DNA of 61,049 nucleotides, the filler included, from an uncultured virus (IMG/VR IMGVR_UViG_3300005239_001275) (Duplodnaviria > Heunggongvirae > Uroviricota > Caudoviricetes > Crassvirales). It is 4 parts of one record of this genome, joined end to end, with 100 filler letters (N's around TTAATTAATTAA, not from the genome) between each part and the next. Parts side by side here need not be neighbours in the genome. Positions count along the whole stretch, not along the records: positions 28,322 to 58,880 come from IMGVR_UViG_3300005239_001275; 3 more parts are not named here. One strand, given 5' to 3'. Shown here piece after piece: positions 1,897 through 61,049 of this stretch. Made by a program: the position numbers and the translations under genes. Numbering within the stretch: the first letter of the stretch is position 1; the number at the start of each line of letters is the position of its first letter. The notes beneath the pieces are model-generated. The model was not told where the DNA came from. It saw only the letters and a list, made by a program, of their open reading frames with translations, and did not search any database.

Positions 1897-4800
1897 CTAG
1901 TAAACAAAAGAGAATTGGTAGTTGCTTGCAGAAGGACTTAAAGGTGTTGAAGTACCTGTCCCTGCTGTTAAAGTAAAAGAAGGGGCGTATGTACCAGCAT
2001 AAACTAAGCAACCCCCTGTTATTGATTCGTTTCTAGCAAGCTTGTTTAATATTCCTGGCTGCATGTTACTACCACCAAAATCATTAACAAAGTCATACAA
2101 TTGATAAGATTGTCCACTCCAACCTTCACTATCCCAGCTAATTGGAGGATTATAATTCTGTGAATAAGCATAAGGATCTAAAAGTATGTTACTACTGCCA
2201 TTGCTTGATATTAAATTTTGCCAACTAGGAAAATCTCCGGAGTTTTCAGCTGTATTAGATCCACTCACCCAAGCATAGTATCCATTTATTCCTGTTCCAA
2301 AAAGATTGTCACCACCTGGATCGCAAACCTTAACAATTATAAACTTGCCTTGATAAGCTTGACCTGTGCTAGTATTAGAACTACATGATATAGCGTAATA
2401 ACCATCGATAGTCCACTCTTGAAGTGAACATAGTTGAAGCCCAGTTTTAATTATAGCCTTGCATTGCGTTGTGCTACCTGGATCAGAAACTTCGTAAGTT
2501 ACAGTATATACGTCTGAAGGCATGTTAGAATCCTGATAACCATTGTTAACTAAATCTACTTTAGCAGCTGAGTTGAATAATGCTGGTCCTGGGTTTTCAA
2601 AAGCAAAGTAACCTGGAGGTGGTATAGTTTGTTCTCCAGGTGTTCCAGCTCCTCTAACTTCACTTATTTTAGTAAAAGTTAAATCTTTGTATCTATTGGT
2701 GTTTCCTAATAAATCTGTTTGTCTCCAACCAGCCCCATTAACAGCTTTTAGTTCACCTATGTATCTAACGCTGGTTGAGCCAGGCTCGAACGGAGGCAAC
2801 GGACAGTCGTCCCAAAGCTCAGAAGTATCTATACATGATAAAGGTTGATCTTTTACAACTGTAACAGCTTGCGAAACCTCTAGTGTAGCTGGAGAGCCAA
2901 ATTCTAACTTAGAATTAGAAGAAGGACCAAACGCGTTTATACTTATATTATTACTTAAAGTCACGGTCATTTGACCACTAACCGGTGTGTTGTCTTGAAT
3001 AGACAGAACACAAGTGCCCTCTGGTACGTTCCCAGAAAAGCCTTGAGTTGTTAAATAACACATGTCATCTACATTTATAGCTCCACTAGCAAAAGGCCAG
3101 TTATAAGCCACAAAAGTGTTGTTATTAGAAACATCATTTATAACACCGAAAGGAACAATAGGATCTCCAGGAGGAGAGTAAGAATTTCCACTTGTCTGCA
3201 AACCAGAAGGTAGTGGATTTGAAGCATCAGTTGTTGTAACGTCCCAGCCTGAGCTAATACCACTAACGCTTGACCCAGAGTAAACTTTTACTACTGTAAC
3301 TCCAGTTTGATCTTTTAGCACTTTAACATTGGCAGAATTTCCGCTAGCTGTTGGTATATGCGGCTGAGTGTTACCTAAGTTTAATTGTTCTGATTTAGTA
3401 AAAGGCAAGCCATTTACAGTTGCTGAAAAATTAAAAGTAAAGTTTCTAGCATTAACATCTACGCCATACCATATTTCAGCCACAAAACCAGGGGCAGTTT
3501 TTATCATATATTGGCGGTTTCCTAATGTTGTTTCTGATAAAGAAAAAACAGGAGAAGTATAAGCTGTTTGAACATTTAGCCCGTTGCCATCTATTACACT
3601 CTCTAAAACTAAAGGTGTTTGATCTGAAACAGCTATAGGTGAACCAAAGTTATCCACTAAATAAACTGGAGCTTGTAAGCAGTCTTCACCAGACCTTAAG
3701 CTTTCATTAAATGGATTATCGTTCCAAGGTGAAAAACCTGCCGCGCCTGTACCAGTTAAATTCTCGTTTATTATAATATCATTTATATCTTTAACTATTC
3801 CAGTAGTAGATGTTTCCCAAAATATATCCAATAAACTTTCTACTGGCTCGGTTTCATAAACCGCTAAATACTGTATTCCTGGGGCGTCAGCGCTATAAAC
3901 ATTTATTTCGTCGCCTAAAGCTACTGAAACTGCCGAAGAAACAACTAGTTGTGCTGGTACAATAAAGTTTAATAATTGGCCTCCAGCAACCTGTACAACA
4001 TTGTTAACCTCAATGTCTAAACCTGAAACGTTTAAAACCACTGTACCTTCTGGAACACCTGTGGTAGCTCCTACGACTTGACCAGCTTCTAGAGGAATAC
4101 TACCTGCTCCTATTGAAGACAGTGTAAAAGTTGTTCCTGTAAAACCAGAAGGAGCAACTTGAGCGTTGGATCTAGCAACATTTGAATCGGTAAAACCTGA
4201 ACCTGCAACAACTAAATCTGTTGGAAACCCTGGGCCAACAACGCTATCACCAATTTCTATTTCAGCTTCGTCACCTGATACTGATGTTATTTGCAGCGTA
4301 TCTGTGGTTGCTGTCACGGCTATAGTGGCACTTACCGCGTTAAAGTTTACATTAGCTACTTGACCTATTTTATTAGCTGTATTTATTCTAGCTATATAAG
4401 GATTTGACTCTAAAGAATAAAACTGTGGAAAAAGTTTGGNNNNNNNNNNNNNNNNNNNNNNNNNNNNNNNNNNNNNNNNNNNNNNNNNNNNNNNNNNNNN
4501 NNNNNNNNNNNNNNNNNNNNNNNNNNNNNNNNNNNNNNNNNNNNNNNNNNNNNNNNNNNNNNNNNNNNNNNNNNNNNNNNNNNNNNNNNNNNNNNNNNNN
4601 NNNNNNNNNNNNNNNNNNNNNNNNNNNNNNNNNNNNNNNNNNNNNNNNNNNNNNNNNNNNNNNNNNNNNNNNNNNNNNNNNNNNNNNNNNNNNNNNNNNN
4701 NNNNNNNNNNNNNNNNNNNNNNNNNNNNNNNNNNNNNNNNNNNNNNNNNNNNNNNNNNNNNNNNNNNNNNNNNNNNNNNNNNNNNNNNNNNNNNNNNNNN

Positions 4801-7403
4801 NNNNNNNNNNNNNNNNNNNNNNNNNNNNNNNNNNNNNNNNNNNNNNNNNNNNNNNNNNNNNNNNNNNNNNNNNNNNNNNNNNNNNNNNNNNNNNNNNNNN
4901 NNNNNNNNNNNNNNNNNNNNNNNNNNNNNNNNNNNNNNNNNNNNNNNNNNNNNNNNNNNNNNNNNNNNNNNNNNNNNNNNNNNNNNNNNNNNNNNNNNNN
5001 NNNNNNNNNNNNNNNNNNNNNNNNNNNNNNNNNNNNNNNNNNNNNNNNNNNNNNNNNNNNNNNNNNNNNNNNNNNNNNNNNNNNNNNNNNNNNNNNNNNN
5101 NNNNNNNNNNNNNNNNNNNNNNNNNNNNNNNNNNNNNNNNNNNNNNNNNNNNNNNNNNNNNNNNNNNNNNNNNNNNNNNNNNNNNNNNNNNNNNNNNNNN
5201 NNNNNNNNNNNNNNNNNNNNNNNNNNNNNNNNNNNNNNNNNNNNNNNNNNNNNNNNNNNNNNNNNNNNNNNNNNNNNNNNNNNNNNNNNNNNNNNNNNNN
5301 NNNNNNNNNNNNNNNNNNNNNNNNNNNNNNNNNNNNNNNNNNNNNNNNNNNNNNNNNNNNNNNNNNNNNNNNNNNNNNNNNNNNNNNNNNNNNNNNNNNN
5401 NNNNNNNNNNNNNNNNNNNNNNNNNNNNNAGCGTTGTCTATGGTTATTGTACCTGTGTTTCCAGCTCCAGCAGTAGTAGCAGTCACCATTGTTCCTTCAG
5501 GTATACCTGGACATATAACAATGTAACCAATTTGTATAGTTGAACCACCTTTTGGCGTGTAATTAGTAAAAGTTATAGTAGTAGAACCTGTTGATATTGC
5601 GTCTGCGTCTACAGTAACCTCGTTCAAAGCCAACTCGCTTTTAGCTGAAATAGCTACATTATAATTTAAACTATCAGGAGCAGTGTGCTTGTCTTGAAAA
5701 TTACCGTATATAACTCTATTACCAGAAACCTCTTGAGCAAAAGCTCTAACTGGTACTTTATCGTAAACTCTTATTAAATCTCTTTCAGGTAATGTTTTGA
5801 TTGGCTTTTTAGAGTTGTAGTTGTATATGTAGTAATCTGGTTCACCTATAGTTAAAACTGTATTGTCTACTATTGTTTGGGCGGAACTAAGCGTTATGGT
5901 GCCTGAAGTGCTTGGGTTTTCATTAGGATCGTCAGGCGCGTAAGAACTAACGGTTACAACTGAAGTTCCTAATATACCAAAACCTGTTACTCTGTCGCCA
6001 ACGTTTATACCGCCTTGAACATTGTCTACAGTAAGTGTTGTTGTGGTCGTGTTAGCAGAAGCTTGGCACGTCGCTGCTGAGTTAAAAATAGTGTTAATAT
6101 CTACAGTATCAATAACCTTAACAGGTAATTGATCTGACTCTTTATAGAGCAGTTCCATAGATTTAACTTTTAATAAATTTTCTAACTCATAGTTATTAAA
6201 CGGTAAAGGTATTCTAAGCTTTATATTGTCTACTTTATTTTCAACAAAAGAAACTATTGTACTTCTATAAGCTTCATCTTGATCGTTAACGCTTTCTATA
6301 TTATCAGCTGAAGGCTTATTAACATACATAAAATACCCGTCTTGTTTAGGTATAAATGCGGCTTGTGTAAATGTAGAAAACAATGAATACTCATCATCAT
6401 CAAACTTAAACCTGTACCCAAACCTAACAAATTTATCTTCTAAATAAGTAGGATCTCCAGCGTAATCATTATCGTAATAAGGATTTGCATTAAAAACTAT
6501 ATCTTGAATGAAGTTTGTTAATGCTGGTAAAGTTCCACCGGTTACGGTCACTTCCCACACAGGCGGGCTAGCGGAGCTATTATAATTTAAACTACTAACC
6601 GTAGTTCCCGTGTCTACGATTGACGGTGGTATAGAGTTTGTCGTATAGTAAACTTTAGCCCCGACAGCTCCATACGCGCCATTTGCTTCGATTATGTCTC
6701 CTTCTAAAGTTCTTAAATTTACTTGACTTGCTCCAACAGATACACTATCTTGAATATTACCTTTACCCCCGTTTGGTAAGTAAAAGCTTGTTGTGTCTTT
6801 CATTGTGCTTTCGTACTCATCAGTTGAAGAAGTTGATAAAGTACTTTCCGCGTAAAGCTCTATGGCTGAGTGAGGATTATATTTAGCTACAGATATTTGA
6901 TCTTCTGTTGTATAGTAATTAGATATATTAGTGGCGTTGTCTATGTTTATTTTTCTAGGTTGATTTTTATTGTCAGTCCAGAAAAGTAAGTTTTCTAAAA
7001 CATTAGCGCCATATATAGGAAATTGTGTAGAGAAATTTAGAAAAGCACCTTGAACTAGAGTAGTTAATGAGTTGTCACTTGAATCAAAAGTTATTATAAA
7101 ATTATTTCCACTAGGACTATAGTCGTTTATCCCACCATTTTGATCTGTAAAAAACAAATAAGCTACAGCTTTTGAATCATCTACAACGTAACCTATACAA
7201 GTTAAATTAGAAACACCAGTGTGAACACCAACGTCTCCAACGTTTGTATTACCTAAAACATTTTCCAAAGAACCAACTTGTTCACCTTCAGACTTGTTTA
7301 CCTGTACATTAACTGCATTTCTATATTCATTAGAGCCAATTATACGAGCGTCCAAATCTTTATTCATTTTGGACTTTAAAAATGTATTTTTAGATTTAGC
7401 CAT
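1897..7403 (-). CDS. Large tail (stabilisation-type) protein, interrupted by an N gap
   Basis: N-terminus MAKSKNTFLKSKMNKDLDAR..EYRNAVN, plus KFVRFGYRFKF and LAVYETEPVESLLDIFWETST. Open frames flank the 4440-5429 gap, and joining them into one gene is inferred. Confidence 0.65.
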
Positions 7404-13401: not shown

Positions 13402-15789
13402 CTACATAAAGGCACCAAGACCTTGGTCCGGTTGATTTTCAAAGTCTATAGGTAAGCCGTCATTTTTTCTTTGACTTATCATTTCACTTTGTTGGGTCGC
13501 TTGTATTTTTGTTCTTTTATCTTTACGATCTTCTATAAACTGTTCTTTGTTTCTTTCTACTTGAATATCCATCTGCTTAAGTTGCATGTCGTACTGGAAC
13601 TGTCTTTCCATCTCGGCTTGCTTTATTTGAGCTGCAACTTGCATTTTCTGCATTTCCATTTCTTGCTTGGCTTTTTCAATATCAACTTTAGTTGATGCTA
13701 CAGCCTCTTGTTTTTGAACTTCAGCCATAGCAGTTCTCTCAGCTGTTTGAGCTTGAGCATCTGCTTGAGCGGCAATATTAGCTTGTTGAGCAGCTTGATC
13801 ACGTTCCATTTTAACCTTACGCTTAATCTTTAGCATTTGATTAGCTAACTTAAGGTTTTTAATTTGACGTATATCAATAGCGTCTTCTAAATCAATACCT
13901 CCAGACTGTAATGCAACTTGTATGTTTTGTTCTAATTGAGCTCTTTCCTCTTCATCAGGTTCTAACTCTAAGAATATACCGAAGTCATGAAGATTTAAAT
14001 CTACAACTTCATCTAATGTTTTTATGTTGTATGTAGATATAGAGTTTTGTAACGATGCTCTAGTTAATGGAAAACGTAAAGCGTCAGCTACTTTTAATGA
14101 AACATTTTCTGCTAGTTTAAGGGTCAAATATAAACTAGACTGAACAATATGTCTAGTTGCTACATTTGAAGCGTTAGCGGCTAGTTTCTGTAAACCTACA
14201 AGCGTGGATTTATCAGGCGTACTACCATCTCTAGCTTCATTAAGCCCCGTAACGTCACGTATCATTTGTAAATAGTATTGATACGTAGTTATTAAACTTT
14301 GTATTTTACCACCACCACTAGAACTATTAAGTTCTTGAATAGGTACTTTACCGTGGTTTAATTCACCATCTTGCGTTAGCGATCTACCAACAATACTACC
14401 AGTTTGAAAATACATATTTAAAGCCTCGGCTGGATTGTAGTTTGTTCCATTACCTAAATCAACCTCTGCTAAACCGTCCATATCAAGATATACACCGTCC
14501 GGCACCATTCTTGATAATACTTGCTGCAATTTTAAATGCGTGATTTGTATCATATCAGCAAATCCAACACACTTACTGACAACAGACTCTATTCTACCTT
14601 TATATATTCTAGGCGCACAAATAGCATAATTCATAGCAACCTTGGTTGTGTCAGCGTATGGTCTTGACATGTTTTCAGCCAACTCCCATTTAAGCATTGT
14701 ATCTGTTCCTAAAACAACAGCTCCATTGTAAAGAACCTCTATAGTTCTAGATACTCTCTCAAAGTTATCATTTTCTGGTGGATTAAATGTATCTGGCTTT
14801 TCAATAGCCTTCATCAACCCTTGATCAGTTTGCTTTATTTTAAATACTTGATTGTGGTATGTCTTATAATCAAAATACATAACCTGTACAGTGTTTTCAT
14901 CATAATCACCCCAACCAGTTATATATGATCTATTTCCAGGCATATTTTGAATACGCTCTAATTCTTTTTCAGATATATGTGGAAACTCTTTTTTAAGCTC
15001 AGGTATAGTTATAGCTTTTACCTCACCAACATAGTATATGTCTTCAAAGTTTGGATCTTCAGAATACGAGTAAACCATATAAGCCGGATCAACGTAATCA
15101 ACTTTAATACCTTCTGCAGTGTTAAAACTAGTTTTAGCAGCAGCAATGCCTAATACGGTTAAATCCATATTAAGTCTACGTCTAACTAAATCATATTTGT
15201 TTTGAGCAAAAACAGTGGATATACTTTCTTCTTCAGCTATCTCAATTGATTGCTTATAACTTAATTGCATTTTAAGTTCCAGCTCTTCTTTGGATTCTGG
15301 TATAGTAGTTGGATCTGGCGATTGATATAAGTCAATACCTAATGTTTGCTTAACACTTTCTATATAATCTTTAGCAACCATATCCTCGTAAAGCTTAGAA
15401 GCATACTCTGTTCTTTTCTTTACAGACTGAGGATCTTGAGCATAAGCCTTAATATCATAAGACTTTTGAGATATACCGTTAACAACAATATCTACGAACT
15501 TAGATAAAATTGGTACTGGTTTCCAGTCTAAATTAAGATAAGACAAATCGCCATTAATAGACAACTCATCTTTATATTTTTGTATAGACTGCTCACCTCT
15601 AGCATACAGTCTTAGATTATGAAAGTTATTCCAATTAGTTAAATATCTATTTCCATTAGTTCTACCTTGTCTAAACCACTCGAACTCTATGGCTTGAGCA
15701 ACTTGCTTACCATATTCTAAAGTGCCTTTTTCTTCGTTGCTTACAACTTGACTAGGAAAAGAACTGTCATTATTAGTATAAACGTTCAT
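13402..15789 (-). CDS. Portal protein
   Basis: 795 aa following TerL, with LNLDWKPVPILSKFVDIVVNG, IRDVTGLNEARDG and a C-terminal Q-rich coiled coil. Confidence 0.85.
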   Translation of the reverse strand: MNVYTNNDSSFPSQVVSNEEKGTLEYGKQVAQAIEFEWFRQGRTNGNRYLTNWNNFHNLRLYARGEQSIQKYKDELSINGDLSYLNLDWKPVPILSKFVDIVVNGISQKSYDIKAYAQDPQSVKKRTEYASKLYEDMVAKDYIESVKQTLGIDLYQSPDPTTIPESKEELELKMQLSYKQSIEIAEEESISTVFAQNKYDLVRRRLNMDLTVLGIAAAKTSFNTAEGIKVDYVDPAYMVYSYSEDPNFEDIYYVGEVKAITIPELKKEFPHISEKELERIQNMPGNRSYITGWGDYDENTVQVMYFDYKTYHNQVFKIKQTDQGLMKAIEKPDTFNPPENDNFERVSRTIEVLYNGAVVLGTDTMLKWELAENMSRPYADTTKVAMNYAICAPRIYKGRIESVVSKCVGFADMIQITHLKLQQVLSRMVPDGVYLDMDGLAEVDLGNGTNYNPAEALNMYFQTGSIVGRSLTQDGELNHGKVPIQELNSSSGGGKIQSLITTYQYYLQMIRDVTGLNEARDGSTPDKSTLVGLQKLAANASNVATRHIVQSSLYLTLKLAENVSLKVADALRFPLTRASLQNSISTYNIKTLDEVVDLNLHDFGIFLELEPDEEERAQLEQNIQVALQSGGIDLEDAIDIRQIKNLKLANQMLKIKRKVKMERDQAAQQANIAAQADAQAQTAERTAMAEVQKQEAVASTKVDIEKAKQEMEMQKMQVAAQIKQAEMERQFQYDMQLKQMDIQVERNKEQFIEDRKDKRTKIQATQQSEMISQRKNDGLPIDFENQPDQGLGAFM

Positions 15790-23006: not shown

Positions 23007-23309
23007 TTATTTTGCCGCTATAAGTTCCGCTACTGTTGTACCTGTCGCTAATACATAGTCTACTGTTACAGGTAAAAATCCGCCAGCTTGTAACCCTTTA
23101 AAAGTAACAGCTTGAGCAGAGGTTGGTAAACTGCCATTAGCAGCTCTAACACCTGCAGGTATTACTTTCATATGAGTACCGACTGTCGTGTTGTCTCCAA
23201 TGTATATAACTGAACCATTTAAAAAATACTGATTACTTATAGTATCATTAGGCGTTATCTCTTGAATATTGTTAGTTGCGAAATCAGGTTGATTACCGAA
23301 TTGTCCCAT
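23007..23309 (-). CDS. Small structural protein (partial duplicate at 24240-24377)
   Basis: 100 aa ending FLPVTVDYVLATGTT. Confidence 0.55.
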   Translation of the reverse strand: MGQFGNQPDFATNNIQEITPNDTISNQYFLNGSVIYIGDNTTVGTHMKVIPAGVRAANGSLPTSAQAVTFKGLQAGGFLPVTVDYVLATGTTVAELIAAK

Positions 23310-23315
23310 TATTTA

Positions 23316-23714
23316 TTATTTTTTTGTTGTTATTGATTTTGCTTTTTCCCATGAACGACCTACAAAATATGCGCCGTACACTGTTACAAGAAGAGTTTGA
23401 AATATTGGTATATACTCTTCTGCTATTTTAAACTCCCCGATGTTTCCATCAAAAAACGCGCATACAGTAAATATAACTGTTAAGTATATAAGTACCATTG
23501 GGCGTATATTTTTAGACAAGAAAGAATCAGACTGCATATCTGATTGCCATCTTGCTGTTACTTGCTCTTGAGCCTCTTTATCAGCTTTCTCAAGAATTTC
23601 TGTAATAAGACGCTGAGCTTCTAGTTTTTCCTCTTTAGTGGTTGTAAGATTATCTAAAACCTCGCCAACTTCTTTTATGACGGAACCCGTAAGCCATTGC
23701 CAAATTTTTTTCAC
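23316..23714 (-). CDS. Holin (3TM-type), copy A
   Basis: TARWQSDM.SDS.LSKNIRP followed by two hydrophobic helices and YFVGRSWEK. Confidence 0.7.
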   Translation of the reverse strand: MKKIWQWLTGSVIKEVGEVLDNLTTTKEEKLEAQRLITEILEKADKEAQEQVTARWQSDMQSDSFLSKNIRPMVLIYLTVIFTVCAFFDGNIGEFKIAEEYIPIFQTLLVTVYGAYFVGRSWEKAKSITTKK

Positions 23715-24219: not shown

Positions 24220-24383
24220 NNNNNNNNNNNNNNNNNNNNTATGAGTACCGACTGTCGTGTGTCTCCAATATATATAACTGAACCATTTAAAAAATACTGA
24301 TTACTTATAGTATCGTTAGGTGTTATCTCTTGGATATTGTTAGTTGCGAAATCAGGTTGATTACCGAATTGTCCCATTATTTA

Positions 24384-24782
24384 TTATTTTTTTGTTGTTA
24401 TTGATTTTGCTTTTTCCCATGAACGACCTACAAAATATGCGCCGTACACTGTTACAAGAAGAGTTTGAAATATTGGTATATACTCTTCTGCTATTTTAAA
24501 CTCCCCGATGTTTCCATCAAAAAACGCGCATACAGTAAATATAACTGTTAAGTATATAAGTACCATTGGGCGTATATTTTTAGACAAGAAAGAATCAGAC
24601 TGCATATCTGATTGCCATCTTGCTGTTACTTGCTCTTGAGCCTCTTTATCAGCTTTCTCAAGAATTTCTGTAATAAGACGCTGAGCTTCTAACTTTTCTT
24701 CCTTAGTGGTTGTTAAGTCGTCTATAACGCTACCAACTTCTTTGATAACGCTACCAGTAAGCCATTGCCAAATTTTTTTCAT
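24384..24782 (-). CDS. Holin, copy B
   Basis: Nearly identical to 23316-23714. Confidence 0.7.
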   Translation of the reverse strand: MKKIWQWLTGSVIKEVGSVIDDLTTTKEEKLEAQRLITEILEKADKEAQEQVTARWQSDMQSDSFLSKNIRPMVLIYLTVIFTVCAFFDGNIGEFKIAEEYIPIFQTLLVTVYGAYFVGRSWEKAKSITTKK

Positions 24783-25854: not shown

Positions 25855-26115
25855 TCATAAAACAACTACAACGTCACCGACTTTAATAACATGATAAGCT
25901 TCTTTTTCAACTTCTATTTTGTGACCAGCATGTCGGTCGTAAAGTATAGTACTACCTTCTTTTAAAGCTGATATATCGCTACCGGCTGAAACAACTGTAG
26001 CTTCCACATATCTTATATCGTCTCTGTGGTTTTCTGCTAAAAGAAGACCACCTTTTGTTTTAGTGGTACCTTCTTTAGTCTTTTTTATAATTATGTTACT
26101 ACCTATTGCTTTCAT
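25855..26115 (-). CDS. groES: Co-chaperonin GroES
   Basis: MKAIGSNIII..TKGGLLL..ATVVSAG..DVVVVL, adjacent to GroEL. Confidence 0.8.
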   Translation of the reverse strand: MKAIGSNIIIKKTKEGTTKTKGGLLLAENHRDDIRYVEATVVSAGSDISALKEGSTILYDRHAGHKIEVEKEAYHVIKVGDVVVVL

Positions 26116-26683
26116 CAATTCTTAAATTATTAATTACACAATCTGTAGATAATATTGTTGTTGCTACTGAAGCCGCGTTTTTAAGAGCGCTTTTAGTTAC
26201 CAGTAGTGGATCAATAATCCCTGCTCGTACCATATTCACTTCCTTGCCTGTAACCACGTTTAACCCTTTGTTTTTAACTTTAGGATAAACAACTTCAAGA
26301 CCTGCGTTAGTAAGAATTGTTTCGTAAGGTGCTTTAATTGCTTGTAGCAGCACTTGTTCACCTTCGCTCTTAGCTTTTATACTATCAGAAGCATTTAACA
26401 AGGCTATTCCACCTCCTGGTACTATACCCTCTTTTATAGCGGCTTTCGTAGCACAGATAGCATCTTCGACTCTATCTGTTTTTTCTTTTAATTCTATTTC
26501 AGAATTAGCACCCACTTTTACTATAGCTACTTTAGCTGATAGTAGCGCTAGTCTTTTTTCAAGCTTTACAAGCTTATTAGGGTTTTTTTCTTTTAAGAGT
26601 TGTTCTTTTAATTCTTTTATAACATTAGCAACTTCTTCTGATACACCATCAACTTGAAGTATTGTGTCCTCGTGTGATGTTAC
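26099..26683 (-). CDS. groEL: Chaperonin GroEL, C-terminal fragment
   Basis: VGANSEIELKEK.DRVEDA..ATKAA..EGIVPGGG and GIIDP..VTKSALKNAASVA. Confidence 0.92.
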   Translation of the reverse strand, partial: VTSHEDTILQVDGVSEEVANVIKELKEQLLKEKNPNKLVKLEKRLALLSAKVAIVKVGANSEIELKEKTDRVEDAICATKAAIKEGIVPGGGIALLNASDSIKAKSEGEQVLLQAIKAPYETILTNAGLEVVYPKVKNKGLNVVTGKEVNMVRAGIIDPLLVTKSALKNAASVATTILSTDCVINNLRIDESNR

Positions 26684-28001: not shown

Positions 28002-28033
28002 TTACAAACAAAACAATACAACTATTGGATAAT
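28002..28033 (+). promoter_or_regulatory. Putative early promoter, copy 3
   Basis: Same motif and spacing, upstream of ATG 28047. Confidence 0.7.
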
Positions 28034-28046
28034 ATAATAAACAACT

Positions 28047-28221: not shown

Positions 28222-28342
28222 NNNNNNNNNNNNNNNNNNNNNNNNNNNNNNNNNNNNNNNNNNNNTTAATTAATTAANNNNNNNNNNNNNNNNNNNNNNN
28301 NNNNNNNNNNNNNNNNNNNNNTCTCAGAGGCCGATTCTAGCG

Positions 28343-28434
28343 GCAACTAGGTGTGGATGCAACAGGAGTTATTAAATTAACCAGAGTTCATTACTGCTGA
28401 CGAGTATGAGGGTTCGATTCCCTCACTAGTTACA
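28343..28434 (+). ncRNA. Atypical tRNA-like element
   Basis: T-arm GAGGG-TTCGATT-CCCTC and GCAACTAG/CTAGTTAC closing stem; no canonical D or anticodon arm. Confidence 0.45.
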
Positions 28435-28515
28435 AATGTGCAGCGAATAAATAACAAAGACGCGCACCGGTCTAACGACAGTGGTGCACCGCGCTTAGGA
28501 AATGACTGCACACAC

Positions 28516-28593
28516 GGGGGTGACCTGGTATTGACGTGATAGAAAGCCTATATGGAACTATTACGGAAGACAGTTCGATTCTGTCCACCTCCA
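28516..28593 (+). ncRNA. Mini tmRNA-like RNA (tRNA-like domain only)
   Basis: Acceptor GGGGGTG/CACCTCC with G3.U70 and A73, stemless D-loop ACCTGGTATTGA, helix CGTGATAG/CTATTACG, GAA linker, T-arm GACAG-TTCGATT-CTGTC. Confidence 0.75.
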
Positions 28594-28666
28594 CTAATCA
28601 ATACACTCGTTAACCGTTTACGGCTACGGGCGATAACCCATGATAACGCGGGTGTATTGAAGATAT

Positions 28667-28739
28667 AGCGCTGTAGAGCAGTGGCCAGCTCGCAAGGCTC
28701 ATAACCTTGAGGTCGTCGGTTCGAATCCGGCCAGCGCAA
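28667..28739 (+). tRNA. tRNA-Met(CAT), initiator-like
   Basis: Cloverleaf with 1:72 mismatch (A/A), D-stem GAGC/GCTC, anticodon arm CAAGG-CTCATAA-CCTTG and T-loop TTCGAAT. CCA is not encoded. Confidence 0.9.
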
Positions 28740-28759
28740 CTAATTTTAAATATAACACT

Positions 28760-30609
28760 ATGTCAATTAAAGAATTTTTAGACAACAAAAACAAAATGCT
28801 TGATCGAGGTATTGTAGCAACACCTGGAAACAGAGAGCGGTTAGAGTTGTTTGCTAACGCGAACAATGGAAGTAACGACTTATTACTAATGCAAATGGCT
28901 ATTAACTTCGGTTATAAAATAGCCTTAGAACACGTTGAGGAGGATTTGTTATGAGTCAGTATAACGGATGGACTAACTACGCTACTTGGCGTGTAAACTT
29001 AGAAATACTCGGAGATATTGAATTTAATGAGCATGTTTCTGCAGATTATTTAAAAGAAATAACAGAAGATTGTGTATTTAGTAATTACGAAATGCACAGC
29101 GGATCTCACTTGATTGAAGATTACGCTAGAGCTTTTATTGATAAAGTAAACTATTATGAAATTGCTGAACACATCAACGAAGAAATAGATTTACAAATAA
29201 AAAACGAATACTAACGGATAATATAATAAAATAAACAATTATGCAAAAACGACTAAATTTATGGCAAAGGCTAAAGCCTGAGTGCAAAGAAGCTATCAAA
29301 GAACAATACAAAAAGTATACTTACAGAAGAGCTGACATTAAAGAAGAATTAAAATCTAAAGAATTTTTTACAGAAGTAAGCTATGGCATAGCTTTTGATA
29401 TAATGATACCTAACAAGCTGAGCTTTCTAGGCGATGCTTTTAATCCTCAAGTCCATGAATAGTGAAATCAAAGAACGTGCAAGACATAAAGCTTTTGCTA
29501 AAATTAGCTTTCTAGAGTTAGAAAACAAAGCTTACATAAGAGATATTAAAGCAGGTGGCGATGGTCGTATAAGTGTAGACTTACTTAAAACATGCTTAAG
29601 CTCTAACAAAAAAGAATTACAAACCTGGCAGTATATTGCCAAATTAATAGAAACAAATGAATAAAATTATTACAGACAAACTAATCGAAGAAAAACTAAA
29701 AGAAAAAGGTCTATCAATGTATGATCAAGTTGATGATTCTCTTAAAAAACTACAAGATTACTACGAATTTGAACTAACTGATTCTTACAACAGAACGCCA
29801 GACTATTCTATATTTGCAGAATCTACTGCTGATGGCTATGAAGTATGGGTTGCAACAAGCGGTGACGGTAGAAATATATGTATCAACGAAGATGTATACT
29901 ACTACGACAGTGATCTTAGCGATCCTTTATATGACGCTATAATGGATTACAACGAGCTTATATACGTAGACGACCTTGAAGCTTATTACGTGCAAACGCT
30001 ATTGATATGGCTTGGGGAAGCGTTTATTACAGAAATGATAGATGAAGTTGAAATGAATTATAGACAGGATATGACGTGAGAAGAAACAGAATTGCCTAAT
30101 GTTTACGTAGTTTATATAGCGAAGGCGACACAGTTGCAAATCAATTTACAGGTGAAGAAATCGAGCTTACTAGTGTAGAACTTAGTCTTTATGACTTTAT
30201 AATGGGTTGCAATATGCTATTCGCTAGAGGATCTAACAGAGTTAATGATGATATGATTAAAGATTTTGATCGAGCATTGACTTGGTTTAGAATTAATAAC
30301 CCACAAGCCTATATGGTATTATTAGATTAAATGACAGAAAAAGAAATAGAAAAACTAGCAGAATTAATTACAGATAAATTAATAGCTAAACAACAAGAGT
30401 ACGATGAACAGTTCCACATTGACTTACAAGAAACAATGATGAAAGACGGAGGGTTTGTACGTCAAGTGTCTGAGGAAGAACTATTACTTGCTGAGATTGC
30501 TAGGCTTATGACCCTTTTGTCATCATATGAAGATAAAGAGCAGTACGAAAAAGCTGCCATTATTAAAAACAAAATAGATAAATTAAAAACTAAATTAGAA
30601 AATTTATGA
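28760..30609 (+). CDS. Cluster of small early hypothetical genes (28760-28954, 28951-29214, 29241-29462, ~29455-29664, 29657-30079, 30331-30609)
   Basis: Tightly packed, overlapping start/stop ORFs; 28951 begins YNGWTNYATW. Confidence 0.6.
29191..29222 (+). promoter_or_regulatory. Putative early promoter, copy 4
   Basis: TTACAAA-N18-GGATAAT upstream of ATG 29241. Confidence 0.7.
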
Positions 30610-57631: not shown

Positions 57632-58880
57632 TTAGTATGATGATTCCACTATGTCTGATGACACAGAGAACAATTCTTTTTTAGTTGTAGGATAAATTGA
57701 ATTATTTAGTTTCATTTTTACAGTTGAATAAAAACCTTTTATACCTGACATATCTGCTCCATATAGTATTTCACCACTTACAGCAGGTGAATTATTTATA
57801 AGGTTTGCAAAATATTTATCTTCTTTTTTCTTAAATGTGTTAGACCATATTTGAGTCTCTAAGCTAGCTAAATTATCCTGAAATACATATTTACCTATTG
57901 GTAAAGTTTTGTCATTAGAACTAGCCACCATGCTTTCTAACTCCCAACCTAAAGCACCCTCGTAGTTAATTGTTTTAAAGTTTTTAACAACTGAAGGATT
58001 AGAGTTTAGTATTATCGTTACATCTGAATCGTAACTAAATCCATAAAACTGAGCATAGTTACCTAAATAGTGTTGATAAAGTTTACCAGTATTAAATGTA
58101 TAAAATACATTACTTAAACTAAAAGAATAATTAGGTTTGTAACTAGAAAAACTAGTCCAACCTAATACGCCCTCGTCAAAAGTAACTGTAGAAAAAGGTT
58201 CTGTCCAGCATATTATAGTTTGTAAAGCTGGTATTGGATTTGTTAGATTAGCTACAAAAGAAGCTGGATTAGATGTTTGTATAACAGAAACGATAGTTCC
58301 ATAAAATTCTCCTGTTATTTGACCTGACGTTGTATATTTATATATATTATCTCCAGCAGCAATGTCACCTATGGTAGCATTTAATGTTACAGTTACATTA
58401 CTACCTGCATTGGCAATATTTTGACCATTTTGGGCTACGTTACCCGTATTTCTTTCTTGCTGTGTAGATACAACATAGTTTTTAGAATGTGAGTTCCACC
58501 CTCCAACTACTCTAGCCGCGTTAGCTAGTTCGTCTCTAAAAAAGTCATGCATACCATAAGATGATATTTCAGTTATACCATCAGCTGATAATCTTAGTAC
58601 ACAACCTCTTTTTTTATCTGTAAAGTATTTTCTATAACCATATACAGCAAAACTTTTCTGGGTTTGTGCTTATACCATATTCACCAGCGTAAGCAACAAT
58701 TTGACCTATAACTTGTAATGATGATGTAATCGATGCGTTACCTTCTGCAGAATATATAGCATCTTTATCTATTAAAGCTCTACTTACTTTGTCTTCTTGA
58801 AATATAATTAAGTTAGTATCTTCAGCATATAATAATTGTATTGAACCATTTGCTGGGTCTGCAGATCTAGTTATATCTTG
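57632..58880 (-). CDS. Tail stabilisation protein, second divergent copy, partial
   Basis: DTNLIIFQEDKVSRALIDKDAIY, GWTSF and SGIKGFY match 10-1860. Confidence 0.7.
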
Positions 58881-59714: not shown

Positions 59715-61049
59715 TTATTGCGGTGTAAACTGCTCTAAACCAAATCCGCCTAAGTTATCATTACCTGCTGATTCAAAATCTGTAGGTAGTAAATCATTTT
59801 GACGTTGTTCAATCATTTGTGATTGTTGTGTTGCTTGTAGTTTTGTTCTTTTATCTTTACGATCTTCTATAAACTGTTCTTTTTCTTTGTCTCTACCAAT
59901 TTGAGCTTGAGCTAGTTGTAAACTATACTGAAACTCTTCAGCCATTAATTGTTTTTTAATTAACGCTTCCTGCTCCATTCTTTGTATTTCAAACTGTGAC
60001 TTAGCTTGTTCGATTTGTATTTCAGTTTGTGCTAAAGCCTCTTGTTTTTGTACTTCATTTAAAGCAGCTTGCTCAGAAGGCTGCATGTTAGCTTGAGCTT
60101 GGGCTTGTATTTGTTTTTCTTGAGCAGCTTGATCTTGTTTTTGCTTTTGTATTCTTCTGTATTTTAATATCTGATTAGCTAAAGTTATATTTTTAACTTC
60201 TCTAATATCAATAGCATCTTCTAAATATATTTGACCAGACTGTAAAGCAACTTGTATGTTTTGTTCTAACATAGCTTTTTCTTCATCATCAGGTTCAAGT
60301 TCTAAATAAATACCAAAATCATATAAATGAAGATTTTTAAGTTCTTCTAAGTTTTGAGTGTTAGTTAAAGATATACTTTGCATTAATGCTTGCTTAGTTA
60401 AATCAAACTCTAAAGCATCGGCTAATCTTAAAGATATATTTTCACAAGCTCTTAAAGTTAAGTATAAACTAGCATCAACAATATGCTTAGTTGCTATATT
60501 TGAAGCGTTGGCAGCCATTTTTTGCAAGCCAACTAAAGCGTCTTTGTCTGGTAAACTGCCGTCTCGCGCTTCATTTAATCCTGTCACATCTCTTATCATT
60601 TGTAAATAATACTGATAAGTAGCTATAAGTGACTGTATTTTTCCATTAGAACTTGAAGTCTGTAATTCTTGTATAGGTACTTTACCCCTATTAGGATCTC
60701 CATCTTGTGTTAAACTTCTACCAACTATACTACCAGTTTGAAAATACATGTTTAATGCCTCTTGTGGATTATAATTGGTACCATTACCTAAATCAACCTC
60801 TGCTAAACCATCAACATCTACAAATACACCATCTGGTACCATACGTTGAATTACTTGCTGTAATTTTAACGATGTTAATTGTATCATATCTGCAAAACTT
60901 GTACATCTACTAACTAAAGATTCAATACGACCTTGATATAAATTAGGTGCACATATAACATAGTTCATTTTAACCTTAGTTAAATCACTATTAGGTCTTG
61001 TCATGTTTTTAGCTAACTTCCACTCTAACATTTGTGAACACCCATAACT
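59715..61049 (-). CDS. Portal protein, second genome, 5'-truncated
   Basis: Colinear with 13402-15789 (DGLAEVDLGNGTNYNP, IRDVTGLNEARDG) but diverged. Confidence 0.85.
   Translation of the reverse strand, partial: SYGCSQMLEWKLAKNMTRPNSDLTKVKMNYVICAPNLYQGRIESLVSRCTSFADMIQLTSLKLQQVIQRMVPDGVFVDVDGLAEVDLGNGTNYNPQEALNMYFQTGSIVGRSLTQDGDPNRGKVPIQELQTSSSNGKIQSLIATYQYYLQMIRDVTGLNEARDGSLPDKDALVGLQKMAANASNIATKHIVDASLYLTLRACENISLRLADALEFDLTKQALMQSISLTNTQNLEELKNLHLYDFGIYLELEPDDEEKAMLEQNIQVALQSGQIYLEDAIDIREVKNITLANQILKYRRIQKQKQDQAAQEKQIQAQAQANMQPSEQAALNEVQKQEALAQTEIQIEQAKSQFEIQRMEQEALIKKQLMAEEFQYSLQLAQAQIGRDKEKEQFIEDRKDKRTKLQATQQSQMIEQRQNDLLPTDFESAGNDNLGGFGLEQFTPQ

Follow-up and report, generated by a model that had tools for sequence, protein, structure and literature searches.

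Is a 78-nt segment that carries the two ends of a transfer-messenger RNA (tmRNA) and nothing of its message a real phage gene, and what might such an RNA do? The question is raised by positions 28516–28593 of a 61,049-nt stretch of DNA (hereafter the window), which consists of four parts of one record of the uncultured Crassvirales virus IMGVR_UViG_3300005239_001275, joined by filler letters. A reading made from the sequence without database searches (the sequence-only reading) had proposed that a mini-tmRNA is encoded here, that is, an alanylatable tRNA-like domain (TLD) that either sequesters the host SmpB or rescues stalled ribosomes without tagging. The computational analysis described below indicates that the segment is a real gene for a predicted tRNA-like tmRNA domain of the SmpB-binding type without a message, and that, judged by its structure, it is a further member of the DS6A kind of "TLD-only" tmRNA, which lacks a coding sequence (CDS).

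Structure and classification of the mini-tmRNA

The search with covariance models suggested by the sequence-only reading was decided in favour of tmRNA. The Rfam tmRNA family RF00023 matched 28516–28596 with 62 bits (E 7.5e-22; the curated gathering cut-off is 47 bits) over model positions 1–374, with 11 nt standing in for 304 model positions, and it was kept as the best match of clan CL00001, from which the lower overlapping matches, including that of the tRNA model, were dropped. The minimum-energy fold (−26.8 kcal/mol, 43% of the ensemble) was identical to the model structure; its z-score was −2.53, and equally good folding was seen in one of 200 shuffled sequences. The gene comprises the following parts:

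28516–28593, + strand: mini-tmRNA gene (tRNA-like domain only), from G1 to the discriminator A73, 78 nt; RF00023 match and minimum-energy fold
28516–28522, + strand: 5′ strand of the acceptor stem, GGGGGUG, forming 7 bp with 28586–28592; G3 is 28518
28523–28534, + strand: D-loop analogue without a stem (A, GG, U.GA), 12 nt; aligned to the tmRNA consensus
28535–28542, + strand: 5′ strand of the helix 2a-like stem, forming 8 bp with 28558–28565
28543–28557, + strand: inner module, 15 nt, consisting of the internal loop AAAG, the 2-bp hairpin CC-UAUAU-GG and AA; folding of the family and layout of the DS6A copy
28558–28565, + strand: 3′ strand of the helix 2a-like stem; read directly, and covariation
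28566–28568, + strand: GAA linker; RF00023 alignment
28569–28585, + strand: T arm, GACAG-UUCGAUU-CUGUC; covariation
28586–28593, + strand: 3′ strand of the acceptor stem, CACCUCC (28586–28592), and discriminator A73 (28593); U70 is 28590
28594–28596, + strand: trailer CUA, CCA not encoded; read directly

Sequence, RF00023 alignment and fold agreed in placing the 7-bp acceptor with G3 (28518) opposite U70 (28590) and A73 where the sequence-only reading had put them, and the unpaired D-loop analogue ending in UUGA before C28535, the 8-bp helix, the GAA linker and the T arm are likewise as it had described. In the RF00023 alignment, the G-A of the GAA linker pairs non-canonically with the G-A of "GAC" at the base of the helix. 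The D-loop analogue, the GAC...GGA joint, helix 2a and the T arm all fit the tmRNA consensus.

An mRNA-like domain (resume codon, tag frame and stop) was not found in the mini-tmRNA, the helix enclosing just 15 nt, and neither was a pseudoknot ring, since no sequence remains that could form one. ARAGORN, run on the window, called the tRNA-Met gene next door and reported no tmRNA or tag at this position, as expected for an RNA without a tag frame. The D stem and anticodon arm that would mark a tRNA were also absent from the mini-tmRNA, and it could not be assigned to the mitochondrial tmRNAs (RF02544), as its best family was RF00023 and its gene order was standard.

The sequence-only reading had considered that raw reads might reveal an assembly deletion of a full tmRNA. 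A 496-nt DNA contig of sequencing run X5 covers 28322–28750 with no difference and no gap; because this independent contig has the same short form, an assembly deletion was dismissed. The short build also recurs in over a hundred independent contigs of viruses (described below). Overlapping pieces from run X1 cover the same interval, and 71–86% of the sampled words of 28322–30300 are present in 14 DNA runs of nine studies (marine, sediment and aquatic). Metatranscriptome contigs of runs X15 and X16 begin at 28806, thus downstream of the gene, and contigs of this kind cannot show RNA ends or CCA.

A family of mini-tmRNAs in uncultured viruses

Relatives were collected with a pattern of tmRNA ends that allowed 20–50 nt from "GAC" to the T loop. 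In its strict form it returned 113 IMG/VR contigs with 84 distinct sequences of 63–90 nt, and the same pattern found eight contigs in prokaryotes (one genome for each of 185,579 species), all of them from metagenome-assembled genomes (MAGs). The 88 loci (80 from IMG/VR and 8 from MAGs) fell into 49 clusters at 85% identity. RF00023 reached its cut-off in 18 of the 20 family loci that were sampled (all but L018 and L044) and in all ten close relatives, and the mini-tmRNA of this phage is an ordinary member of its family. ARAGORN made tmRNA calls at three of 60 family loci (L002, L006 and L063), all long and probably spurious. A blastn search of 50,697 cultured-phage records, for which the window's gene, the DS6A copy and two other members of the family served as the four queries, revealed DS6A as the sole cultured carrier; whatever else matched was a T-arm fragment of a tRNA or of a full tmRNA.

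Pairing was counted in a plain MAFFT alignment of 85 sequences, which was not fitted to the structure. The pattern fixes A8, G12, G13, U16, G18 and A19 (counted from G1) in all 85, and their invariance is uninformative, as is that of the other invariant pairs, which were also fixed by the pattern. Paired cells made up 96.3% of the alignment as compared with 44–51% when the 3′ partners were slid by 1–3 columns, 13 of the 20 pairs changed on both sides, and the covariation score of 0.728 (0.154 in shuffles) was reached by none of 500 shuffled alignments. Compensatory changes occurred in seven of the eight pairs of the helix 2a-like stem (91.6% of cells paired) and in four of the five pairs of the T stem (100%), while positions 5 and 6 of the acceptor stem covaried with 68 and 67. 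The linker was GAC in 39 sequences, GAA in 27 and different in 19. The relatives keep both G3.U70 and the helix, the two features whose conservation the sequence-only reading had proposed to examine. Considering the RF00023 score together with the covariation, we concluded that the proposed tRNA-like, SmpB-binding-type domain without a message holds up as a sequence-based assignment.

The inner module of the helix

As to the 15 nt that close the helix, the sequence-only reading was right about the length, but what it had described as a plain loop is predicted to be a conserved module of an A-rich internal loop and a small hairpin (AAAG/CC-UAUAU-GG/AA in the window). Energy folding produced an inner hairpin in 73 of the 85 distinct family sequences; these counts, like the following ones, come from energy folding and are therefore biased toward pairing. 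A accounts for 62% of the 5′ unpaired strand, whose most frequent length is 4 nt (32/73) and whose commonest form is AAAG (20 sequences). The hairpin has 2–5 bp in 67 of the 73 sequences and a loop of 4–5 nt in 52, and it is followed on the 3′ side by 0–2 unpaired nt in 63. Six of the remaining 12 sequences represent a short subtype of 63–68 nt, in which the helix is closed by 4–6 nt, and the other six were assigned to neither form.

Alanine identity and the 3′-end

The determinant for alanyl-tRNA synthetase (AlaRS) is G3.U70, which is described as invariant among tmRNAs (Himeno et al., 2014, PMC3985003). A second scan, in which positions 70 and 73 were left free, returned the same 113 contigs, with U70 in 113/113 and A73 in 113/113, numbers that are conditional on G1–G4, C69, C71 and C72, which the pattern fixed. 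Judged by these sequences, the alanine-identity features of the family are under selection, and since G3.U70 and A73 are invariant, charging of the RNA is favoured and a role as a pure sponge for SmpB is disfavoured. A73 is followed by CCA in 32 contigs, by CUA in 32, by CAA in 13, by CGA in eight and by other triplets in 28. The form of the window's group is CUA, and consequently CCA would have to be added in this group.

Functions absent from the carrier phages

The protein scan of the window covered 82 open reading frames (ORFs) of at least 45 aa, of which 67 were compared with Pfam and 29 with PHROGs. No SmpB was found among them, and the Rfam search detected no full-length tmRNA in the window. 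The search was extended to ten carrier genomes that are at least 90% complete according to CheckV, five of them from the window's group and five from unrelated phages of 84–167 kb. SmpB was present in none of the ten and neither was a full-length tmRNA, the mini gene being the sole tmRNA match over the cut-off in each genome. Because the phage brings no such partners, its RNA must use the AlaRS, SmpB, EF-Tu and ribosomes of the host.

Comparison with known tmRNAs

The novelty implied by the sequence-only reading did not survive the comparison, as the form is already in the literature: an entry "Mycobacterium phage DS6A (TLD only)" appears in Hudson, Lau and Williams (2014; PMC4131195), and the 2025 tmRNA database gives nine sequences as "Standard, no CDS" among 97,179 (PMC11915505). 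Mao et al. (2009), as quoted in these two sources, found that the DS6A TLD-only tmRNA or a similar molecule inhibited Escherichia coli tmRNA, chargeable or not, and in both a similar molecule is said to "strongly inhibit[s] tmRNA" in E. coli. The two functions suggested by the sequence-only reading, sponge and tag-free rescue, are those in print for DS6A.

We located the DS6A copy at 28478–28560 of JN698994 (tmRNA Website tmID 11587, Phage__Mycobacterium.9), where it is unannotated in GenBank and scores 43.2 bits, under the RF00023 cut-off. Like the window's gene, it is phage-borne and about 80 nt long; G3.U70 acceptor, T arm and helix 2a-like stem are all there, a tag frame is not, and in its inner module an A-rich strand likewise precedes a small G+C hairpin. 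The structural traits of a TLD-only form are present in the window's gene, which is unpermuted, 78 nt long and free of a tag frame, with helix 2a soon closed; the window and the ten near-complete carriers also agree with this form in having neither an SmpB gene nor a full tmRNA. The differences are that DS6A is a high-G+C actinophage whereas the window belongs to a marine Bacteroidota-type podophage of about 34% G+C, and that DS6A has CA after the acceptor stem where the family has GA, for which reason our pattern missed it. A search of the available literature found no publication on the breadth of the family or on its inner module. Two points, the conservation of this module and the frequency of the form among uncultured phages, go beyond the published descriptions that we found.

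Organelles also have CDS-less tmRNAs, namely the mitochondrial ones (RF02544; jakobids and oomycetes) and plastid forms of about 65 bp in Mallomonadaceae, which are reported as tRNA-like domains without a tag frame that are kept together with SmpB (PMC11915505). According to the same source, the mitochondrial genes are usually circularly permuted, while the window's gene is in standard order; moreover, the organelle forms serve their own ribosomes, whereas the window's RNA would act in a foreign cell. A laboratory-made TLD of Thermus thermophilus tmRNA, 63 nt long (25 + 34 nt + UUCG), was crystallised with SmpB (PDB 2CZJ; PMC3985003). Members of the short subtype with 63–64 nt are equally large and are built in the same way, a tetraloop closing their helix 2a; the A-rich loop and the extra hairpin are additions seen in the window's gene. 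With tRNA-Ala the window's gene shares G3.U70 and A73, the T arm and the 7-bp acceptor stem, but it is without the D stem and the anticodon arm.

Full-length phage tmRNAs with the same kind of tRNA-like domain (360–407 nt) occur in the Cellulophaga phage phi38:1, the mycobacteriophage Kumao and the Gordonia phage Forza, and the copies of the latter two are annotated. The 362-nt tmRNA of phi38:1 (NC_021796.1, 26803–27164, − strand; locus L255, 1503–1862) has an Rfam score of 87.6 bits and a tag that ARAGORN reads as AQIEANMEAVNAILNLEVAVGV*; the RefSeq record has no tmRNA annotation, and the "hypothetical protein" gp041 is called across the gene. In host class and in the 3′ trailer ACUAAU, phi38:1 agrees with the window's phage; its tmRNA ends are only modestly closer to the window's gene (22/27 and 31/43 identical positions) than those of the actinophages (19–20/27 and 25–27/40). 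In the Maribacter phage Panino, a 333-nt "tmRNA" is annotated (PP540027.1, 27557–27889), which overlaps two tRNA genes. The Rfam match there (L256, approximately 1501–1592) is 92 nt long and has 26 bits, with a good 3′ half (T arm and CACCUCCA) and a poor 5′ half; this element may be either a mis-call or what is left of a decayed mini-tmRNA.

Genomic surroundings of the gene

The mini-tmRNA lies at the start of a rightward gene block, on the + strand like the block itself. Going downstream, the bipartite motif at 28002 is followed by a tRNA-like RNA, a 78-nt linker, the mini-tmRNA and tRNA-Met. The neighbouring features are:

28002–28034, + strand: bipartite, promoter-like motif that precedes the cluster of RNA genes; motif count and relatives
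28345–28432, + strand: unclassified tRNA-like RNA, the upstream neighbour of the mini-tmRNA; folding and family pattern
28667–28740, + strand: tRNA-Met (CAU), the downstream neighbour; ARAGORN, and Rfam tRNA with 62 bits

The motif TTACAAANAAAA-N13-GGATAATA is present in four copies on the + strand (27201, 27366, 28002 and 29191) and in none of 100 shuffled sequences, and it is also found upstream of the RNA cluster in relatives; it would act as a promoter.

The upstream tRNA-like RNA, which was called by neither ARAGORN nor Rfam, consists of a 6-bp acceptor-like stem (AACUAG/CUAGUU), U8, a very variable hairpin of 17–69 nt, a 4-bp hairpin UACY-GACG-RGUA, a T arm, A73, and CAA or CUA. The 4-bp hairpin covaries in 38 parsed sequences (TACC/GGTA in 26, TACT/AGTA in nine and TAAC/GTTA in one). 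A pattern for this RNA matched 83 loci in IMG/VR (L264–L343 among the relatives), some of them by chance, and since a mini-tmRNA lies within 450 nt in just 14 of the 83, the two RNAs are independent of each other. In some contigs of runs X1 and X5, a single base is missing at both 28412 and 28420, by which the two strands of the T stem are shortened in step. For the linker (28437–28515), folding (−23 kcal/mol, z −1.15) gives a stem GUGCAG/CUGCAC that surrounds a G+C hairpin and strands rich in A. The linker is kept in the loci L026, L035, L038 and L054 and missing in L003 and L050, where the mini-tmRNA abuts the upstream tRNA-like module with a 3–4-nt spacer. The series GCA GCG AAU AAA UAA in the linker was considered as a nearby message domain and was rejected because of its absence from these two loci. 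In tRNA-Met, the first acceptor pair is A1 opposite A72, non-standard in the Rfam alignment, which can be an initiator-like trait; its anticodon stem is without the usual three G-C pairs.

Other ribozyme and tRNA genes were seen near single family members: a Pistol ribozyme (L109, 35–96, 50.8 bits), a type II hammerhead (L006, 199–263, − strand, 44.1 bits) and a tRNA with the anticodon CUA, labelled Pyl by ARAGORN (L066, 209–282, − strand), which may be an amber suppressor.

A portal and a large terminase are encoded together with virion proteins, lysis genes and a replication block, which marks the window as phage DNA (G+C content 34.6%). With that of the closest deposited relative, the uncultured freshwater podovirus MW202828, the terminase shares 63.5% identity, and it is 32–44% identical to those of phages of Flavobacterium, Maribacter, Cellulophaga and Tenacibaculum; because of these relatives, the host is probably a member of Flavobacteriia. 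Virion proteins with crAss-type "muzzle" domains (PF25729 and PF25731) are encoded at 10–1860, 4410–7403 and 57632–58552 (− strand), and GroES-like and GroEL-like ORFs, the latter cut by masked stretches, at 25855–26515 (− strand). The portal gene is present in two diverged copies (13402–15789 and 59715–61031, about 74–79% identical DNA, spaced by 46,334), as is a segment of virion-protein sequence (1303–1532 and 58650–58879). Apparently the window either extends beyond a single genome length into the genome of a relative or combines two related phages. The holin region is duplicated as a 300-nt direct repeat with 99% identity (23192–23491 and 24260–24559), and two ORFs resembling GTA_holin_3TM are located there (23316–23714 and 24384–24782).

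Possible functions of the mini-tmRNA

The reading that we prefer, with a confidence only a little better than even, is that the locus encodes a functional CDS-less, DS6A-type tmRNA of the phage, which would act as an alanine-charged, SmpB-bound competitor of the host tmRNA and suppress tagging. The biochemical steps are drawn from tmRNA biology (PMC3985003) and from the quoted experiment with the DS6A-type molecule. The RNA would be transcribed together with its tRNA-like neighbours from an early-type phage promoter, trimmed and supplied with CCA by the tRNA-processing enzymes of the host, charged by the host AlaRS by virtue of G3.U70 and A73, and bound by the host SmpB, as the phage encodes none. 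EF-Tu would then bring it, as a rival of the host tmRNA, to ribosomes that have stalled on broken mRNAs and whose A site is empty. It would accept the nascent chain without offering a resume codon, a tag frame or a stop codon, so that the chain would gain a single alanine instead of the degradation tag and the ribosome would have to be freed by the back-up routes of the host. The net effect would be that the rescue-and-tag activity of the host is suppressed during infection.

Several points weigh against this competitor model. The inhibition quoted in PMC4131195 was independent of charging, so charging is not needed for the effect, and the counts of U70 and A73 in favour of charging are subject to the pattern-fixed positions mentioned above. 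The model names no benefit for the phage and gives no role to the conserved A-rich loop and hairpin. No release helper of phage origin was detected, RF-1/ArfB-type domains and Pth each being found in none of the five large carriers. There is no recurring neighbour protein either, the best protein cluster occurring at five of the 49 mini-tmRNA clusters (1,698 stop-to-stop frames from 88 loci), and the top neighbour families are DNA methylase, NlpC/P60 and zinc ribbon proteins. Furthermore, neither MW202828 nor the Flavobacterium phage elemoE has a tmRNA match over the cut-off, and RF00023 found nothing above it in phi19:3, phi13:2 and Gundel_1; the mini-tmRNA gene is accessory and dispensable in the lineage.

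Tag-free rescue for the good of the phage would be compatible with the same sequence features. Here the charged mini-tmRNA and the host SmpB would raise the rescue capacity and make ribosomes stranded by phage-induced mRNA decay available again for phage messages, as is assumed for the CDS-less mitochondrial tmRNAs, of which it is argued that such a tmRNA "nonetheless helps" with incomplete mRNAs (PMC11915505), and the full tmRNAs of phi38:1 (with its tag frame), Kumao and Forza suggest that phages gain from more rescue. However, an RNA without a stop codon does not itself release the ribosome, and an ArfB-like protein or Pth that could do so was as absent from the ORFs of the window as from the large carriers. 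The sole quoted experiment shows inhibition of tmRNA, although a tagging read-out, if one was used, could not have separated the two alternatives, and we regard this rescue as unlikely, though worth serious consideration. A pure SmpB sponge, which would soak up the host protein and need neither alanine nor EF-Tu nor the ribosome, is quite doubtful. It is in accord with the conserved SmpB-side features and with inhibition "whether or not chargeable", "perhaps acting by titrating SmpB" (PMC4131195), but it would require neither G3.U70 and A73 nor the stack of 7 + 5 bp of acceptor and T stem, and it leaves unexplained why U70 and A73 never change in the 113 contigs while other stem positions vary freely.

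The row of tRNA-like modules behind a promoter-like motif (tRNA-like RNA, mini-tmRNA and tRNA-Met) and the 3–4-nt spacer in L003 and L050 could also mean that the module is kept solely as a signal for RNase P and RNase Z in the early transcript. This explanation is improbable, as cleavage signals require neither G3.U70 nor a tmRNA-type D-loop with the GAC...GGA joint, and at the 60 family loci examined with ARAGORN a tRNA gene was called within the 1.5-kb flanks in 23 and none in 37. Very improbable, too, is a decoy for other proteins that bind tRNA-like domains, for example those of defence systems with SmpB-like domains: CoCoNuT systems of type II and III-A carry SmpB-like OB folds and are predicted tmRNA binders (PMC11090510), but nothing links CoCoNuT-type systems with these phages or their hosts, and selection on the alanine identity would remain unaccounted for. 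The 3′-end of ssrA is frequently duplicated in phage attachment (att) sites, and a full tmRNA exists in the related cultured phage phi38:1, by which the locus might be taken for a fragment of a host ssrA integration site or for the dead remnant of a full phage tmRNA. Either origin is barely credible given that both halves of the domain are present and paired, that compensatory changes extend across 49 sequence clusters, and that the size class is steady at 63–90 nt. The attP reading was rejected, as both halves are present and no integrase was found among the ORFs of the window.

There is also a slim chance of a template-free tailing activity, in which repeated rounds of the alanyl-mini-tmRNA and SmpB would add runs of alanine to stalled chains. 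After transfer and translocation no message would be left in the channel, the ribosome would again be "non-stop", and a second alanyl-mini-tmRNA with SmpB could enter, the A-rich loop and hairpin aiding hand-over or release. If true, this would be a phage counterpart of the RqcH-type alanine tails, re-programming the fate of stalled proteins of both host and phage.

Whatever the mechanism, trans-translation is a near-universal quality-control path of bacteria and a drug target, and phages appear to carry a compact RNA aimed at it. Such RNAs would be far commoner than the literature shows, considering the 113 viral contigs found here and the nine database sequences (PMC11915505). The invariant alanine identity and the conserved inner module offer concrete experimental handles for deciding whether these RNAs block the rescue of the host, replace it, or have another role.

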